From a virus (Duplodnaviria; Caudoviricetes): a DNA stretch of 64,000 nt. Of this stretch, positions 27,172-56,569 are shown in pieces. Made by a program: the position numbers and the translations under genes. Each line of letters opens with the position of its first letter. Position 1 is the stretch's first letter. The stretch lies in the IMG/VR virus record IMGVR_UViG_3300032007_000014. The stretch is one strand, 5' to 3'. The notes under the pieces are model-generated. The model worked only from the letters and a program-made list of their open reading frames with translations. It was not told where the DNA came from and searched no databases.

Positions 27172-28338
27172 TTATTTCTTTGCAAAATATGCGTCAGCAG
27201 CCCAGGTGTCGTCGACTTCACCGTCTCCATCACCAGAACCCTTGCCGTCGCCTTCGCCTTTTCCAGATCCGGCATCGTCTCCGTCACCGGAGCCTTCTTC
27301 TTTTTCACCGGAACCTTTTTCTCCTTCTCCGGCGTCATCGCCTTCTCCGGAACCTTCGGCTTTCTTGGCTTTGTCAGCGGGAGCGGCAGGCTCTTTTCCA
27401 CCTTCGCCCTCACCTTCACCAGAGCCTTCCCCTTCACCGGATCCAGCACCGTCGCCGTCTCCTTCACCAGGGGTCTGGTTCTTCTTGGCTTTCTTGGACT
27501 TGCACTCATCGCAATCGCAGTCGTCGCCGTGCTCGCCCTTGCCTTCGTCAGGAGTCTGATTCTTCTTCTTGCCGGTGGCTTCGCCGTCACCTTCTCCGGA
27601 GCCTTTTCCATCTCCTTCGCCGGATCCGCCTTCACCACTGCCTTTGCCATCACCGCTTCCGCTGCCTTCACCAGAGCCGGATCCCTTGCCACTGCCAGAT
27701 CCTTCACCTTCGCCAGCGCCACCTTCCTCGGAAAGGATGTGGAGTGCTTCGGTGGAACTCATAGCAGCGAAGAGGCGTCTGCGCATCTGTTCACCGGTGA
27801 TGTAGGTATCCTGTTTGCAAGAAGTGATCTTGGTGTACTCCTCGTTGGTGAGAATACCTGCAGCAACCATGTCTTTCAACAAGCTTTCCATAAACTTCAC
27901 CAATTCTGTTGCTTCTTCTTTGATCTCAGACGAGCGTCCAAATGCTCCATGCGATGTACCATGGAACATGAACTTCGCCCAGGGACCGACTTCACGATTT
28001 TTACCATAGAACCACACTATGGTACCTGCAGATGCAACGAGGCCACTGGCAACAGTGGTCACGTTGGCTTTACATCTCATCATGTAATCGACGAGAAGTT
28101 GTGTTGCGTACACATTGCCACCGGGTGTGTCGATGACAATTCTGATCTCATCGCCAGACTTCGCACGGCCGAGTATATCGAAGACTTCAAGAAACTGTGA
28201 AGTCGCTTCGATGACTCCACACAACTGGATCGTGACCTCTTCGTGGCCATTCGAATCAATTGGTTTCTTGCAGATGATCGGTGGAACTCCGCCGTACGGA
28301 GGTGGCATTTTGATCGGTGAGGTTGCATTGATTTGCAT
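27172..28338 (-). CDS. ClpP-family serine protease with Gly/Glu/Ser-rich C-terminal tail
   Basis: IDTPGG, GLVASAG (Ser), FMFHG (His), QDTYIT (Asp). Confidence 0.85.
   Translation of the reverse strand: MQINATSPIKMPPPYGGVPPIICKKPIDSNGHEEVTIQLCGVIEATSQFLEVFDILGRAKSGDEIRIVIDTPGGNVYATQLLVDYMMRCKANVTTVASGLVASAGTIVWFYGKNREVGPWAKFMFHGTSHGAFGRSSEIKEEATELVKFMESLLKDMVAAGILTNEEYTKITSCKQDTYITGEQMRRRLFAAMSSTEALHILSEEGGAGEGEGSGSGKGSGSGEGSGSGDGKGSGEGGSGEGDGKGSGEGDGEATGKKKNQTPDEGKGEHGDDCDCDECKSKKAKKNQTPGEGDGDGAGSGEGEGSGEGEGEGGKEPAAPADKAKKAEGSGEGDDAGEGEKGSGEKEEGSGDGDDAGSGKGEGDGKGSGDGDGEVDDTWAADAYFAKK
27200..27730 (-). repeat. low-complexity GEG/GSG/GDG coding repeat
   Basis: Degenerate tandem GEGEGSG/GDGKGSG units; KKNQTP occurs twice; CDCDEC motif. 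Confidence 0.8.
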
Positions 28339-28352
28339 GGTTAACCTCCCGA

Positions 28353-29156
28353 TTATTTGTGATCAAACAGTGCACCGAAGATCGAAACGTTGCCTTTTTC
28401 GGAGACAAGCTGATTGCCAGGTGCCCGTGTCATAATAATGTTTTTGACGCGAACGGAATCACATCCGAATGCATCAAGAACCTGCTGGTCCTGTATGATC
28501 GATTCGTGACCAACTGACTGAAGGGCTTCCATAGCAGATGCATAGTCTTGCTTGCCGACAGTAATGTCGATGGACTCATTGGATGCATCTTGATCACGGA
28601 AACGCTTACTGGCTTTCAGGAAGCCAGGACCATCGACAGCATCGAATGTCACAAGTGCGAGCATTTCTTTGCGTGTGTTGGGACCAGACTGTCCGATCAC
28701 ACGAGCTGCCGATCTCAGAGAGAACGACGTATTGCGACGTCCATCCTCAAAGGATTCTTTCAAATACTGACCATACGGTCCGTATGGCACGATGTCGCCA
28801 TACACCATGATCGTGTTGTCAGTTTCCACACCATACACTTTCGTGAAGTAGTGTGAGACTCTGGTACGATCAATGTAGAGCAATCTCGGGAGATCATCTT
28901 TGGTTTTGATGAGAGGATGACCCCACTCACCTTCCATGTCTCCAGACTGCACATTCGCCGCGAAGCGTCCCTGAAGATTGGTGATGCATGCAAGGACTGA
29001 TTCTCTGGTGTAATCAACTTTGTTGCGAGATGCAACTCCGATGACCGTCAGAGGGATTCCTTTATACACACCATTCTTGTCAGGCTTGACTGCTTGCAAC
29101 TGGCGACCTTCCATCTCCAGTTCGGTAGAGATGGAAAAACAGACTTGTTTTTCCAT
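28353..29156 (-). CDS. prohead (head maturation) protease (phiKZ gp175-like)
   Basis: GEWGHP (His), VSH, PYGPYG, SFSLRS (Ser), TFDAVDGPG motifs; ASNE autocleavage-like site. Confidence 0.85.
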   Translation of the reverse strand: MEKQVCFSISTELEMEGRQLQAVKPDKNGVYKGIPLTVIGVASRNKVDYTRESVLACITNLQGRFAANVQSGDMEGEWGHPLIKTKDDLPRLLYIDRTRVSHYFTKVYGVETDNTIMVYGDIVPYGPYGQYLKESFEDGRRNTSFSLRSAARVIGQSGPNTRKEMLALVTFDAVDGPGFLKASKRFRDQDASNESIDITVGKQDYASAMEALQSVGHESIIQDQQVLDAFGCDSVRVKNIIMTRAPGNQLVSEKGNVSIFGALFDHK

Positions 29157-53109: not shown

Positions 53110-53209
53110 TCATATAGATCAAATGAACCATTAAAGCCGTATATTGTGATTCGAAGATGTAATAAAATAGTTACTGCACTGGGATCACTCCCAGTGCAGT
53201 AACCATAAA

Positions 53210-54445
53210 TCAACTTCTTTCCGCATATGCTTTGTCAAGCATAGTTGAGATCTTACTGAAATGGCTGTCAGATGGAGCTTTTCCTCCACCATTCAGAACA
53301 CCAATCGCATATCCTTGTTTGATAGCTGTATTCTGATTCTTATTGACAGTTCCAACACCAGAACAAAGCTCTGTCACTGATGAAACTTTCATTCCATTGA
53401 AACCGGTCAGTTTCTTGGAACTCACAGAACCTTTCACCATATCAGTTATTGACTTGTCAGCATATCTGCTATCACGAAGTGCAGATGGAAGAGCAGCTTG
53501 AGAAATCTGTTTTGAATCGATTCCACAACTTGTCATTGCAGTTTTCATATTTGCAACGGTGGATCCATTCTCAACAACCTTTCCAGACATAGTTCCGAAC
53601 TCTCGTCTTGCGATGGCTTTCATGTCACCGCCAGATGCAATTTCAGATACTTTTCCGAAAAGCTTTGAGTTTCCAGATGCCGCGGTAGCTGTGATCGTTG
53701 TTACAGATGCTGACACTCCAGTGACGGTACCGAGAACTCCGTTTTCGGACATGAGTTCTCTTTTACGTCCAGGACAATCCAGCATCTGATCTGCTTGACC
53801 GGTGTTACCTTTGTTCACAGCCTTGATGTAATCATCAAGGAATCCGAATGATCCAGCTAACGCTTTCAACGTATAGTCTGTATCAATCTGAGACTTCGCC
53901 CATTGACAAGTCGAACATTCGAAATATGGCTTATTCGCACAATTATTCTTCTTGTAAGACTTGGCAGATGTATCCTGTGTCTTGATCACATCATTAAGAG
54001 AAGATTTCTTTATCTCTTCTCTTGTGGTCGGAACAGAAGATTTAACTTTGGCTTTTGCATCTTGAAACAGCTTGGAGAACTTCGCTGACATGCTGTTGTT
54101 CTCCGCACGTTCTGCTTCTTCTGCAGCTTTCTGTATCTCTTCTGCTTCAAGAGCGGCATCGTATGCTTCAGCACCATACATGCCTTCATCACACATGTCG
54201 TGAACTTCATCTGCCGATAGTTCGCCAGCAGCCACTGCTGCGGCGACATCATTTTCTGGAGAAGTGACAATCTTATCCAGCATCTTCCCTGACATACTTG
54301 TAACAGAGTTGGATGCTGGAGAGTCCGTACCTGCACCTATCGGTACAGTCTTCTGGACGTCATTGATATCCTCCAAAACTTCAGTTGTTGCAGATGGGGA
54401 TGCACCACCTTGAGTGACGCCTTCTGCTTGTCCAACATTGAACAT
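53210..54445 (-). CDS. hypothetical (probably virion) protein
   Basis: 411 aa; AAGGAGG RBS; acidic N-terminal region with GAE/ALE sites; CSTC motif. Confidence 0.6.
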   Translation of the reverse strand: MFNVGQAEGVTQGGASPSATTEVLEDINDVQKTVPIGAGTDSPASNSVTSMSGKMLDKIVTSPENDVAAAVAAGELSADEVHDMCDEGMYGAEAYDAALEAEEIQKAAEEAERAENNSMSAKFSKLFQDAKAKVKSSVPTTREEIKKSSLNDVIKTQDTSAKSYKKNNCANKPYFECSTCQWAKSQIDTDYTLKALAGSFGFLDDYIKAVNKGNTGQADQMLDCPGRKRELMSENGVLGTVTGVSASVTTITATAASGNSKLFGKVSEIASGGDMKAIARREFGTMSGKVVENGSTVANMKTAMTSCGIDSKQISQAALPSALRDSRYADKSITDMVKGSVSSKKLTGFNGMKVSSVTELCSGVGTVNKNQNTAIKQGYAIGVLNGGGKAPSDSHFSKISTMLDKAYAERS

Positions 54446-54457
54446 ATGTCATCCTCC

Positions 54458-55756
54458 TTACAAATTGTTGTCAAACAGAAGTGCGGTTAAGAGCACTTTT
54501 GCTATGACGGAGGACCTCGTTCTGGTACGTGGATCAAGTGCGTTGAGTTCAGCACCACCTGTTTCTTCAAGCTGTCTCTTGAAATCACCATATGCGTTGA
54601 TGTCACCACCACGAACACGCACGAGTTCATTCAACGTAGCTTCAAGTCCACGTGTGTTAAGTGATTGGATTTCCGGTGCGGACAAAGCACATGCTCTATC
54701 AGGTCCAGAGACTTGTCCAGTCAGTGCATCAATTCTCTGGTCTCTTGAAGGAACAGAAAGTTTCTTGTCAACTTCCTGTTGTGCTCGTCTGATAGGAAGT
54801 TGGAGAACGAGATATTTCTCGTTGGTGAGATACTTTCTTCCTGTCGTAACATCGGTAAGCCAAAGCTTGTGGTAAACGTTCAAATCAACAACCGACAATC
54901 CTCTGATAAGATCATGAATCTTAAGGGACTTCTTCATATTCGGCATGATGATGTTGATCGCAATTGCTCCTTTGGAGAGATCCGTCATAAAACGAATGAA
55001 ATCATTGTCAGACATCTTTCCAAGAAGATTCTGATAACGACGTCCGTTGTCTCCAGATGGATCAAGTGTATCCATCACTTTCACAATATGAGCAATGATA
55101 CGTTTACGTTTATCTTTTCCCTTTTCAGACAACACCTCAGTTGCGACATCTTCGAAAGAAATGTTGTCATCATCTTCGCGGAATCCTTCCACTACCATGT
55201 GACCATTCGAAATCTTTTTCGCGAAGTCAGCATCATAGTGTTTCTTCCACTTCACAGTCACCTTGCGTTTTTCAGCAATCGGTAACTGCTTGTAAGAGAC
55301 GAACAACCAGTTCTTCTTGTCATCGGGTGTTGCATAGTAGAGAGCATCTTTACAGTCCTCTTTCTTGACACAATAAACATATCCAGTTGTCTCTCCTTCA
55401 ACAGGAGACAAGGATTCGTCATTGTGAACAATCTCAACAAAGTTCACTTCTCTACTGAGAGAAGCTGCTTTATCAAGTTGAAGGATATGCTCCTGATAGT
55501 TCTTCATCTTGGACCCATGTCCGATCATGAAAGGAACGATATGTGCACATGCAATGCCATACAAACGATGCATATACACAACAGGAACTTCAATGTCTCT
55601 GTTTGCTCTGTTCTTGCAAACATGGATGCCAAGACTTGTGATATCAAGATCTCTCTTGGTTCCATGATAAAGGAATTCCCCACATTTCTTCCAATCAGAT
55701 GCACTGATCGGAGAACGCTCTTCATAGGGAGTATCCTTGGTTATTTTCTTTCCCAT
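54458..55756 (-). CDS. virion RNA polymerase beta-C subunit (phiKZ gp149-like) with N-terminal ADP-ribosyltransferase-like domain
   Basis: C-half LPIRR.QQ...KK, ID.LTGQV, S.PE and RGGD motifs; N-half FLYHGT..VY..GYVY. Confidence 0.75.
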   Translation of the reverse strand: MGKKITKDTPYEERSPISASDWKKCGEFLYHGTKRDLDITSLGIHVCKNRANRDIEVPVVYMHRLYGIACAHIVPFMIGHGSKMKNYQEHILQLDKAASLSREVNFVEIVHNDESLSPVEGETTGYVYCVKKEDCKDALYYATPDDKKNWLFVSYKQLPIAEKRKVTVKWKKHYDADFAKKISNGHMVVEGFREDDDNISFEDVATEVLSEKGKDKRKRIIAHIVKVMDTLDPSGDNGRRYQNLLGKMSDNDFIRFMTDLSKGAIAINIIMPNMKKSLKIHDLIRGLSVVDLNVYHKLWLTDVTTGRKYLTNEKYLVLQLPIRRAQQEVDKKLSVPSRDQRIDALTGQVSGPDRACALSAPEIQSLNTRGLEATLNELVRVRGGDINAYGDFKRQLEETGGAELNALDPRTRTRSSVIAKVLLTALLFDNNL

Positions 55757-55823
55757 ATGGGTATTCTCCTTATATTCAACAATTCATAAGATGGCATTGA
55801 AACAAAAAATAAAGAAAAAGAGA

Positions 55824-55852
55824 GAACCTCCTGGGAATATCCCAGGAGGTTC
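55824..55852 (-). terminator. 13-bp hairpin followed by a T-tract on the minus strand
   Basis: GAACCTCCTGGGA-ata-TCCCAGGAGGTTC. Confidence 0.75.
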
Positions 55853-55871
55853 CTTCTATCATTGATTGAAA

Positions 55872-56207
55872 TCAGAAGTCATCACGATCCTGATCACCTG
55901 AATCATCGTCATCTTCTTCATTCAAGTCGTCATCTTCCCAAGGAGGATTGTTATCTCCATTGGGATCATAGTCGTCATCGATCTCGTCATCGTCAGGTCC
56001 GCTCAACGCGTCTTCCAAGTCAGACGGATCCATCTCATCTTCGAGATAGGAGACGGCGTCATTCTCAAAACGAGAACTGTCTTCCATCCGTTCCATCTCT
56101 TCATCGAGTTCCTGCTTGCAAGCAGGACAAAGATTTGGATTCATATCGGACACGTCACGATAATCTTCCAAATCAAATGCTGCATTACATTTCTTGCATG
56201 TTAGCAT
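55872..56207 (-). CDS. small Zn-ribbon protein with very acidic tail
   Basis: AAGGAG RBS; CKKC...CPAC; Asp/Glu-rich C-terminus. Confidence 0.65.
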   Translation of the reverse strand: MLTCKKCNAAFDLEDYRDVSDMNPNLCPACKQELDEEMERMEDSSRFENDAVSYLEDEMDPSDLEDALSGPDDDEIDDDYDPNGDNNPPWEDDDLNEEDDDDSGDQDRDDF

Positions 56208-56569
56208 GTCTTCTCCTTGCAGTTGATTGTGTAGATAGACTCGTCTACATCGATAATACCCCATCTGATTTGCACGATGCAGGGATCTTCGTTCGCATCC
56301 TGGATGATCTCGGACTTGAAGATCATCCCAACTTCGCATTTGCATCCGCGCCACTGGGTACGGATGTAATCGCTGACATCTGCGAGATACTCATTGAGAC
56401 GAAGTGCCATTTCCTTCCATCCACGAGTGTTGACTCTCGAGATTTCGACAATGTTCTCAATGAGAGGCTCGAAACTTGCCAACTGATCTTCCGTCGTGGC
56501 TCCGTTCTTGAGAGCATAGAAGATCTTCCAGATGATTCTTGCGGTTTTGTCAACCTTGTTATTTCTCAT
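56201..56569 (-). CDS. hypothetical protein
   Basis: 122 aa; overlaps both neighbours (operon). Confidence 0.6.
   Translation of the reverse strand: MRNNKVDKTARIIWKIFYALKNGATTEDQLASFEPLIENIVEISRVNTRGWKEMALRLNEYLADVSDYIRTQWRGCKCEVGMIFKSEIIQDANEDPCIVQIRWGIIDVDESIYTINCKEKTC

Follow-up and report, generated by a model that had tools for sequence, protein, structure and literature searches.

Why would a piece of a phage RNA polymerase be preceded, in the same polypeptide, by 207 residues that its orthologues normally lack? The question is raised by the window, a stretch of 64,000 nucleotides from the 238-kb IMG/VR virus record IMGVR_UViG_3300032007_000014 (Duplodnaviria; Caudoviricetes), in which a minus-strand open reading frame of 432 amino acids joins an N-terminal domain, here named X, to the C-terminal piece of the β subunit (beta-C) of a phiKZ-type virion RNA polymerase (vRNAP). 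The answer proposed here, which we regard as reasonably probable from sequence, structure models and analogy with other phages, is that X is a cargo of the ADP-ribosyltransferase (ART) fold, carried on vRNAP beta-C and freed by the head protease. An earlier note on this DNA had described the gene as an Arr-like ART joined to a vRNAP subunit through a prohead-protease site. Its coordinates are exact, the strings that it quoted are all present (FLYHGTKRDL at residues 28-37, VVYMH at 59-63, TGYVYCV at 124-130, FVSYKQLPI at 152-160 and SFEDVATE at 200-207), and its interpretation as a whole is partly supported, since the fold, the fusion and the type of site at the joint stand while the assignment to Arr does not. 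The parts of the protein are as follows.

54458..55756, minus strand: precursor gene of 432 amino acids, formed by X (ART fold), an acidic linker and vRNAP beta-C (open reading frame list and translation).
55187..55756, minus strand: domain X, residues 1-190, modelled as an ART fold and ending in the family-invariant V189-E190 (AlphaFold 2 model, Foldseek, VIA-align and family alignments).
55136..55186, minus strand: disordered acidic linker (residues 191-207); the candidate cleavage points follow VVE190, SFE202 and ATE207 (model confidence and motif list).
54461..55135, minus strand: vRNAP beta-C module, residues 208-432 (225 amino acids), orthologue of phiKZ gp149, PhiPA3 gp172 and SPN3US gp218 (phrog_3233 and tblastn).

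Regarding the C-terminal module, residues 215-432 match phrog_3233, "RNA polymerase beta subunit", with an E-value of 9e-59 over profile positions 3-222 of 225, and tblastn finds matches to it in 290 phage records, all of them from phiKZ-like jumbo phages. The identity with phiKZ gp149, PhiPA3 gp172 and SPN3US gp218 is 32-38%, the PhiPA3 gp172 record being itself annotated as similar to phiKZ gp149. The stand-alone orthologues of this type have 221-224 amino acids and carry no N-terminal extension; none of the 290 matching GenBank records covers more than about half of the 432-residue query, with X absent from all of them, and the fusion of X and beta-C occurs in none of 50,697 GenBank phage records, X being present in metagenomic arrays. 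Thus, the 207 residues before beta-C are an addition and not the usual propeptide of gp149 orthologues, a possibility that the earlier note had itself raised. X as an insert inside a contiguous β subunit is ruled out as well, because a gp178-type gene for the N-terminal piece of the subunit (beta-N) lies in the same genome at C1:6616-10458, about 160 kb from the X/beta-C gene. In SPN3US, gp218 is essential, is required to load all five vRNAP subunits and is listed without a processing site (PMC5694885).

The nature of X is less evident from family searches. Neither X nor its stand-alone homologues, described below, have a match in Pfam or NCBIfam (E-values up to 10) or in PHROG, and phmmer with the whole 432-residue protein against the sequences of the Protein Data Bank (PDB) returns only an insignificant match, 2re7. 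An exhaustive phmmer search with X against 1.84 billion representatives finds nine clusters only, where X is always inside larger proteins, and scans of IMG/VR and metagenomes give only six further loci. The X profile has ARR-2 as its sole match among PDB sequences (E=2, with YHGT and GYIY aligned), and hhalign of the X family against five plasmid arr proteins gives a probability of 6.7% over the C-terminal half only, which is not significant. Membership of X in the Arr family was dropped because of the missing Pfam and NCBIfam matches, this hhalign result and the absence of the FPGNPT.SYR block.

The ART fold itself, the other part of the earlier claim, is found in two models. The AlphaFold 2 model of X, built on 11 copies, has a predicted local distance difference test score (pLDDT) of 69.6; its top Foldseek rows are Arr-2, Arr-ms, cholera toxin A and pertussis toxin S1, with E-values of 0.1-1, and VIA-align against 48,161 representative chains places ART folds in about 40 of its best 50 rows, with a top Z of 6.9. 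A profile search also leads to stand-alone X homologues of 147-151 amino acids on an archaeal-looking contig. The model of the 151-residue homologue reaches a pLDDT of 87.7 and a predicted template modelling score of 0.81, and all of its best 50 VIA-align matches among the same chains are ART-fold proteins, with 9ld3_A (Z 8.6), mouse Tpt1 (7.1), diphtheria toxin (6.2), Arr (5.7) and several PARPs (about 5.5) among the top rows. From these models, the ART fold of X is established at the superfamily level, and X is a new, previously unclassified ART family of putative H-Y-[D/E] type.

The stand-alone homologues (L014 4107-4562, which is P0016, together with P0014 and P0015) show the pattern YHGS...LFLSP...HN...GYIY...E-L-V-Y and are closer to Xb, a diverged copy of X found in phage arrays, than to X; their contig also encodes ribosomal protein L15e, an FKBP and an acylphosphatase. 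In addition, the X-family model matches residues ~1420-1645 of PDB 9k3a_B, an ejection protein of a podophage (cyanophage A4 pre-ejectosome), with Z 5.5 over 96 residues, which suggests, by this model comparison, an ART-like domain within a solved ejectosome protein.

In the ARTs of phage polyvalent proteins, the active site has been described as a histidine on strand 1, a tyrosine on strand 2 and an aspartate on strand 5 (PMC5512222). The corresponding positions of X are given below.

55658..55669, minus strand: Y30-H31-G32-T33, the strand-1 H-G-[ST] motif that binds nicotinamide adenine dinucleotide (NAD) in H-Y-[E/D] ARTs (alignment to YHGT of Arr-2).
55574..55576, minus strand: Y61, candidate strand-2 tyrosine, in VVYM, to be compared with IYF of Arr (strand 59-63 of the model).
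55310..55312, minus strand: N149 (codon AAC), at the putative position of the strand-5 catalytic acid (alignment and codon).

The pair H31-G32, on a strand modelled at residues 28-33, is invariant in 15/15 family members, being followed by threonine or serine at position 33, and position 61 is tyrosine in all 11 X copies and phenylalanine in Xb and in the stand-alone homologues. Column 149, just before the strand F-V-S-Y, is the sole acidic column kept family-wide, with aspartate in 10 and glutamate in 4 of the 15 members and asparagine in the window protein; it is placed as the catalytic position by alignment and predicted strands, not by superposition. H31, Y61 and D149 are found together in 10 of the 11 X copies, the exception being the window's own. 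Both lineages bearing Asn149, the window protein and its relative L022, retain every other invariant residue, so X appears to be under constraint in them. To judge from its sequence, ADP-ribosyl transfer by the window's copy is uncertain.

The orthologous proteins that bear X are much longer than the window protein, having 888-2608 amino acids, and nearly all have this beta-C module at their C-terminal end. The modules before it comprise DUF5662, SET, GNAT, a transglutaminase-like domain, one or two phrog_3921, Xb, a module of about 100 amino acids named here YDPPY, and an SNF2 helicase that is the orthologue of phiKZ gp203 (E 1e-80 to 1e-87), a protein known to undergo proteolytic processing and to be packaged in the phiKZ head (bioRxiv 10.1101/2025.11.23.690004). 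X itself keeps 44-63% identity across this deep divergence. The array P0012 is the positional orthologue of the window gene, since both share the second and third genes downstream. The giant proteins were rejected as artefacts of gene calling or genetic code, since they are single open frames (table 11) on several independent contigs. The genome to which the window belongs encodes the helicase separately, at G000 C1:179589-181577 (+), about 1.4 kb past the window end and with 32% identity to phiKZ gp203 over 640 amino acids, and its beta-C carries X alone. Polyvalent proteins are phage polypeptides that combine 2 to 15 domains of disparate activity and whose delivery is predicted to accompany that of the DNA (Iyer et al. 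2017, PMC5512222). The best reading of the window gene, from these sequences, is that of a minimal form of a protease-punctuated polyvalent cargo on a vRNAP piece, because related phages hold long, motif-separated enzyme arrays at the same position.

Some array modules deserve a description of their own. YDPPY, which reads YDPPY.E...MREHGYSEEIIERLK.D...H.WRM.TGIELIH.EPTK and has no match in Pfam or PHROG, is found in P0009:655-778, P0005:1746-1856, P0007:726-836 and at the start of P0012 and P0017, thus at varied array positions and often with S-x-E on both sides. The largest array, P0017 (2608 amino acids; L021 4875-12698, on an IMG/VR contig of 318,604 bp), has two phrog_3921 modules with H-D motifs, such as CHDIGH, which by eye resemble the signatures of HD phosphohydrolases. 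P0004 (624 amino acids, on a 2.2-kb contig) begins with about 105 residues that are argininosuccinate-lyase-like (Lyase_1, ArgH-like), followed by a helicase tail, X and beta-C; this start is probably an assembly chimera and was left out of the architecture evidence.

The release of X would depend on the joints between modules. Proteases of the phiKZ-like phage group cleave after S/A/G-x-E, and the linker of the window protein, in which residues 184-212 are disordered in the model (pLDDT <50), reads ...VVE190/GFREDDDNISFE202/DVATE207/VLSEK, where slashes mark candidate cuts, with valine at P4 and alanine at P3 of the E207 site. Although the linkers of the orthologues cannot be aligned, [SAG]-x-E stands no more than 12 residues from the beginning of beta-C in 8/9 of them (P=6e-6, Poisson-binomial against each protein's own motif density), which supports a prohead-protease-type site at this joint. 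The ninth orthologue has TTE at the joint, and threonine at P3 has been proven in 201phi2-1, at TFE-275 (PMC5694885). The motif of the SPN3US protease is A-x-E, with valine preferred at P4 and serine at P1' (PMC10052503), a preference that V-A-T-E207 fits.

Other module borders follow the same pattern. X ends in an invariant V-E, mostly as A-V-E/S, and is preceded by S-S-E/A, while the phrog_3921 modules are flanked by S-x-E/TM.LL and PDPSLE/; inside X, no cleavage motif is conserved. The natural ends of genes also fall at these motifs, as P0005, a complete gene, stops exactly at ...VVE, Met1 of the window protein lies three residues before the position of the SSE/A site found ahead of X in the large arrays, the stand-alone helicase ends about 6 residues after the RGFE/SLD site of the arrays, and the stand-alone beta-C of 221-224 amino acids has the size left by the predicted cut at E207. 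A presumed processing enzyme is encoded in the window.

28353..29156, minus strand: head maturation protease of the phiKZ gp175 type, 267 amino acids, presumed processing enzyme (phrog_3014, E 4.9e-27; tblastn with phiKZ gp175, E 1.4e-6).

This protease carries SNE194/S and AME210/A near its own C-terminal end, the place where the SPN3US enzyme cuts itself, at AQE-203 (PMC5694885). It adjoins a 388-residue gene (27172-28338, minus strand) with a ClpP/SppA-type protease domain (phrog_1827, E 1e-34) and a tail of about 190 residues made almost wholly of G, S, E, D and K, whose product could be, by its sequence, a second protease or a scaffold-like protein.

Taken together, these features are consistent with a gene product that would be a two-part precursor, with X at the N-terminal of the beta-C of a packaged multisubunit RNA polymerase. 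By the genetics of SPN3US, no vRNAP subunit enters the prohead until all five have assembled (PMC5694885); because beta-C is required for this assembly to be loaded, X would be carried into the head by its fusion to beta-C. The gp175-type head protease would then cut in the acidic linker, with V-A-T-E207 as the most likely site and E190 or E202 as possible further ones; the products would be a beta-C of canonical size and X as a separate protein of about 22 kDa, which may be delivered together with the polymerase at infection. By analogy with T4 Alt and with the proteins that combine an ART and an N4-type vRNAP, its target could be a factor, of the host or of the phage, that acts when transcription begins. 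The fold, the domain architecture, the conservation of the joint motif and the presence of the protease gene are observed; the cut itself, the retention and ejection of X, its use of NAD and its target would follow from them by comparison. The retention of a cut-off fragment has a precedent, since two fragments of one precursor, phiKZ gp162, are both present in the capsid (PMC11297242).

Several points weigh against this reading. Once these proteases have released a propeptide, its usual fate is degradation and exit from the head (PMC10052503), and the cut specificity is taken from the proteases of related phages and not from this phage's own. The motif [SAG]-x-E also occurs inside the folded beta-C module (APE362, GLE372 and GAE403), so that the argument rests on its conservation at the joint and not on its presence. 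Individual fold-match scores are modest (Z 4-8.6), and Foldseek of the homologue model with pLDDT 87.7 against the PDB gives mostly Ig and YEATS noise, the ART signal of this model having come from the exhaustive VIA-align search only. The window protein and its closest relative, L022, both have Asn149. Moreover, P0005 has two X copies at the C-terminal end of the beta-N subunit and not on beta-C, an arrangement that would demand an unusual C-terminal processing, and in L026/L022 the array DUF5662-X-SET has no beta piece at all; an RNA polymerase carrier for X is not universal.

A broader form of the proposal is therefore held only tentatively, with somewhat less than even confidence: the split vRNAP β pieces may serve, in a clade of uncultured jumbo phages from gut or rumen, as the anchor by which a kit of effector modules (ART-fold X, SET, GNAT, gp203-type SNF2 helicase and HD-like modules) is loaded into the capsid. 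The head protease would free these enzymes, and X would be injected with the polymerase to modify a target, in host or phage, as infection begins.

The alternative that survives best, although it is unlikely, is that X is not a released effector but a permanent or transcription-linked accessory of vRNAP, which would modify the polymerase, the template or the 5' ends of early transcripts, either tethered at the site where beta-N and beta-C are split or acting beside the polymerase in company with the SNF2 helicase of gp203 type; the action on transcripts would resemble that of Tpt1-type ARTs on RNA phosphates. The NAD lobes of Tpt1 are the closest structural matches of X, which nevertheless lacks the N-terminal RNA lobe of Tpt1 and its Arg-His pair. 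The C-terminal end of beta-N, where P0005 carries X, and the N-terminal end of beta-C, where the others carry it, are the same topological place in the β subunit, as expected for an accessory; however, protease-type motifs are kept on both sides of X, the natural termini coincide with them, and L022 has X without any beta piece. The array SNF2 helicase co-occurs phyletically with RNA polymerase subunits and has been proposed as a RapA-like partner (PMC7824862), whereas all cultured phiKZ-like phages function without X.

Somewhat less probable again is that X is a disposable propeptide or assembly module, aiding the folding or loading of beta-C before being cleared, and catalytically dead in this phage, as asparagine instead of aspartate or glutamate in column 149 of the window protein would allow. 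Long N-terminal propeptides of 111-275 amino acids are typical of the group and usually leave the head (PMC10052503, PMC5694885), but those of SPN3US are cut into pieces (PMC10052503), whereas X has no conserved cleavage motif within it. Its identity and its other invariant residues are kept over deep divergence, both Asn149 lineages included, it has stand-alone cellular homologues, and its array neighbours are enzymes, of which gp203 is known to stay in heads; a released fragment does not need to be lost either, as both gp162 fragments are kept in the phiKZ capsid. Finally, that the ART likeness is a chance motif match in a domain of other fold or function is very improbable, since the missing Pfam, NCBIfam and PHROG family, the poor hhalign probability against Arr and Foldseek E-values never better than 0.1 are set against two models from different query sequences, both giving almost wholly ART-fold lists out of 48,161 chains, and against an invariant H-G-[ST] whose place on strand 1 is that of the H-Y-E clade.

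Returning to X as a cargo freed from beta-C, the surroundings of its gene bear on its expression and comprise the following elements.

55766..55771, minus strand: ribosome-binding site AAGGAG, 9 nt 5' of the ATG (direct sequence reading).
55823..55853, minus strand: intrinsic-terminator-like hairpin with a 14-bp stem and a T run, closing the gene upstream of X/beta-C (sequence).
53210..54445, minus strand: gene of 411 amino acids, function unassigned, starting 13 nt past the X/beta-C stop (open reading frame list).
53167..53206, minus strand: second terminator, end of the unit 3' of the 411-residue gene (sequence).

The frame of the X/beta-C gene stays open for just 9 codons 5' of its ATG. Because of the 13-nt gap and the second terminator at 53206-53167, this gene and the 411-residue gene, which has no match in a PHROG scan, are probably co-transcribed as one unit. 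The element ATATATTAC, a candidate early-promoter element, has 4 copies in the window against 0.09 expected, at 12982, 17407, 53101 and 57632, all on the minus strand; it stands just upstream of both units that flank the X/beta-C unit and has no copy before the X/beta-C unit itself, which weakly suggests non-early expression.

Upstream, a 160-residue open reading frame (55872-56354, minus strand) shows a zinc-ribbon-like CxxC...CxxC motif and an extremely acidic C-terminal third, with no family match. The metagenome protein P0003 (349 amino acids) has 99% identity to the window protein over X, the linker and ~75 residues at the N-terminal end of beta-C, falling to roughly half after ...PNMKK; in sequence, this pattern looks like a recombination breakpoint within the beta-C gene, between related phages.

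To our knowledge, the enzymes that phiKZ-like jumbo phages inject besides the RNA polymerase, and the way they are loaded, are largely unknown. This gene family offers a possible loading rule, where a cargo is fused to a vRNAP piece and cut by the head protease at S/A-x-E, and its arrays would be a catalogue of cargo enzymes, with X defining an unclassified ART family. Polyvalent proteins, injected ARTs, protease-processed head proteins and the association of an ART with a virion RNA polymerase in N4-like phages are already known; what is apparently new here is a piece of a split multisubunit phiKZ-type vRNAP as carrier, the head-protease motif as apparent punctuation, and the ART family itself. 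The description of the Jug phages (PMC12880540) mentions neither vRNAP fusions nor ARTs.

Compared with known ARTs, X resembles Arr (Arr-2, 9iba; Arr-ms, 2hw2), a small H-Y-D ART whose YHGT, (I/V)Y(F/M), GYIY.V and SY...PL line up with X, and which both leads the Foldseek list of the X model and is the sole match of its profile among PDB sequences. However, the FPGNPT.SYR block is invariant in Arr and absent from X, Arr has about 140 amino acids against about 190 for X, an insert of about 40 amino acids lies between strands 2 and 3 of X, and nothing links X to rifamycins. The NAD lobe of Tpt1/KptA, which shares the HGT motif, gives the best structural matches to the X family (Z 8.6 and 7.1, with a root-mean-square deviation of 2.6-3.4 over 79 residues). 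X was nevertheless rejected as a Tpt1, because these matches cover the C-terminal NAD lobe only, and the N-terminal RNA-binding lobe and the Arg-His-Arg-Arg tetrad are absent, with only about 25 residues before the HGT strand. By these models, X is structurally at least as close to the NAD lobes of Tpt1, diphtheria toxin and PARPs as to Arr.

With respect to processing, phiKZ gp203 and the vRNAP beta-N propeptide of 201phi2-1 come from precursors cut by a gp175-type protease, as is proposed here for X/beta-C. T4 Alt is an ART that the head takes up and the prohead protease trims, and that is injected along with the DNA (PMC5512222), and by analogy the proposed route of X would share head loading, prohead-protease trimming and injection. 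In contrast, Alt belongs to the R-S-E clade, is encoded by a separate gene and has no polymerase fusion, T4 having no vRNAP.

The definition of polyvalent proteins fits the window protein, with its ART fold and RNA polymerase beta-C, and its orthologues, with more modules, their delivery being predicted only. The H-Y-D configuration of ART-PolyVal and Tox-ART-HYD2, inside a multidomain phage protein, is common to the X copies with D149. The Pfam ART-PolyVal profile has no match to X or its relatives at E-values up to 10, and the BFVD rows named ART-PolyVal-like reach probabilities of 0.13-0.28 only. The polyvalent proteins with an H-Y-D ART and an N4-type virion RNA polymerase, whose prototype is CBX87992.1 of Roseovarius Plymouth podovirus 1 (PMC5512222), also hold an H-Y-D ART in one polypeptide with a virion-packaged RNA polymerase; they likewise have disparate enzymes added (GNAT, SNF2 helicase and peptidase-like modules) and are predicted to enter the host with the DNA. 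Their carrier is the single-subunit N4 enzyme, whereas here it is a piece of a split multisubunit phiKZ-type vRNAP, and they have a zincin-like processing peptidase, where the present proteins have head-protease S/A-x-E motifs at their joints. The theme of an ART with a virion RNA polymerase would thus extend from the single-subunit N4 type to the multisubunit phiKZ type, suggesting convergent pressure towards coupling ADP-ribosylation to the initial round of phage transcription; if the proposal is true, the vRNAP-anchored effector kit would be convergent with the polyvalent proteins of N4-like phages.

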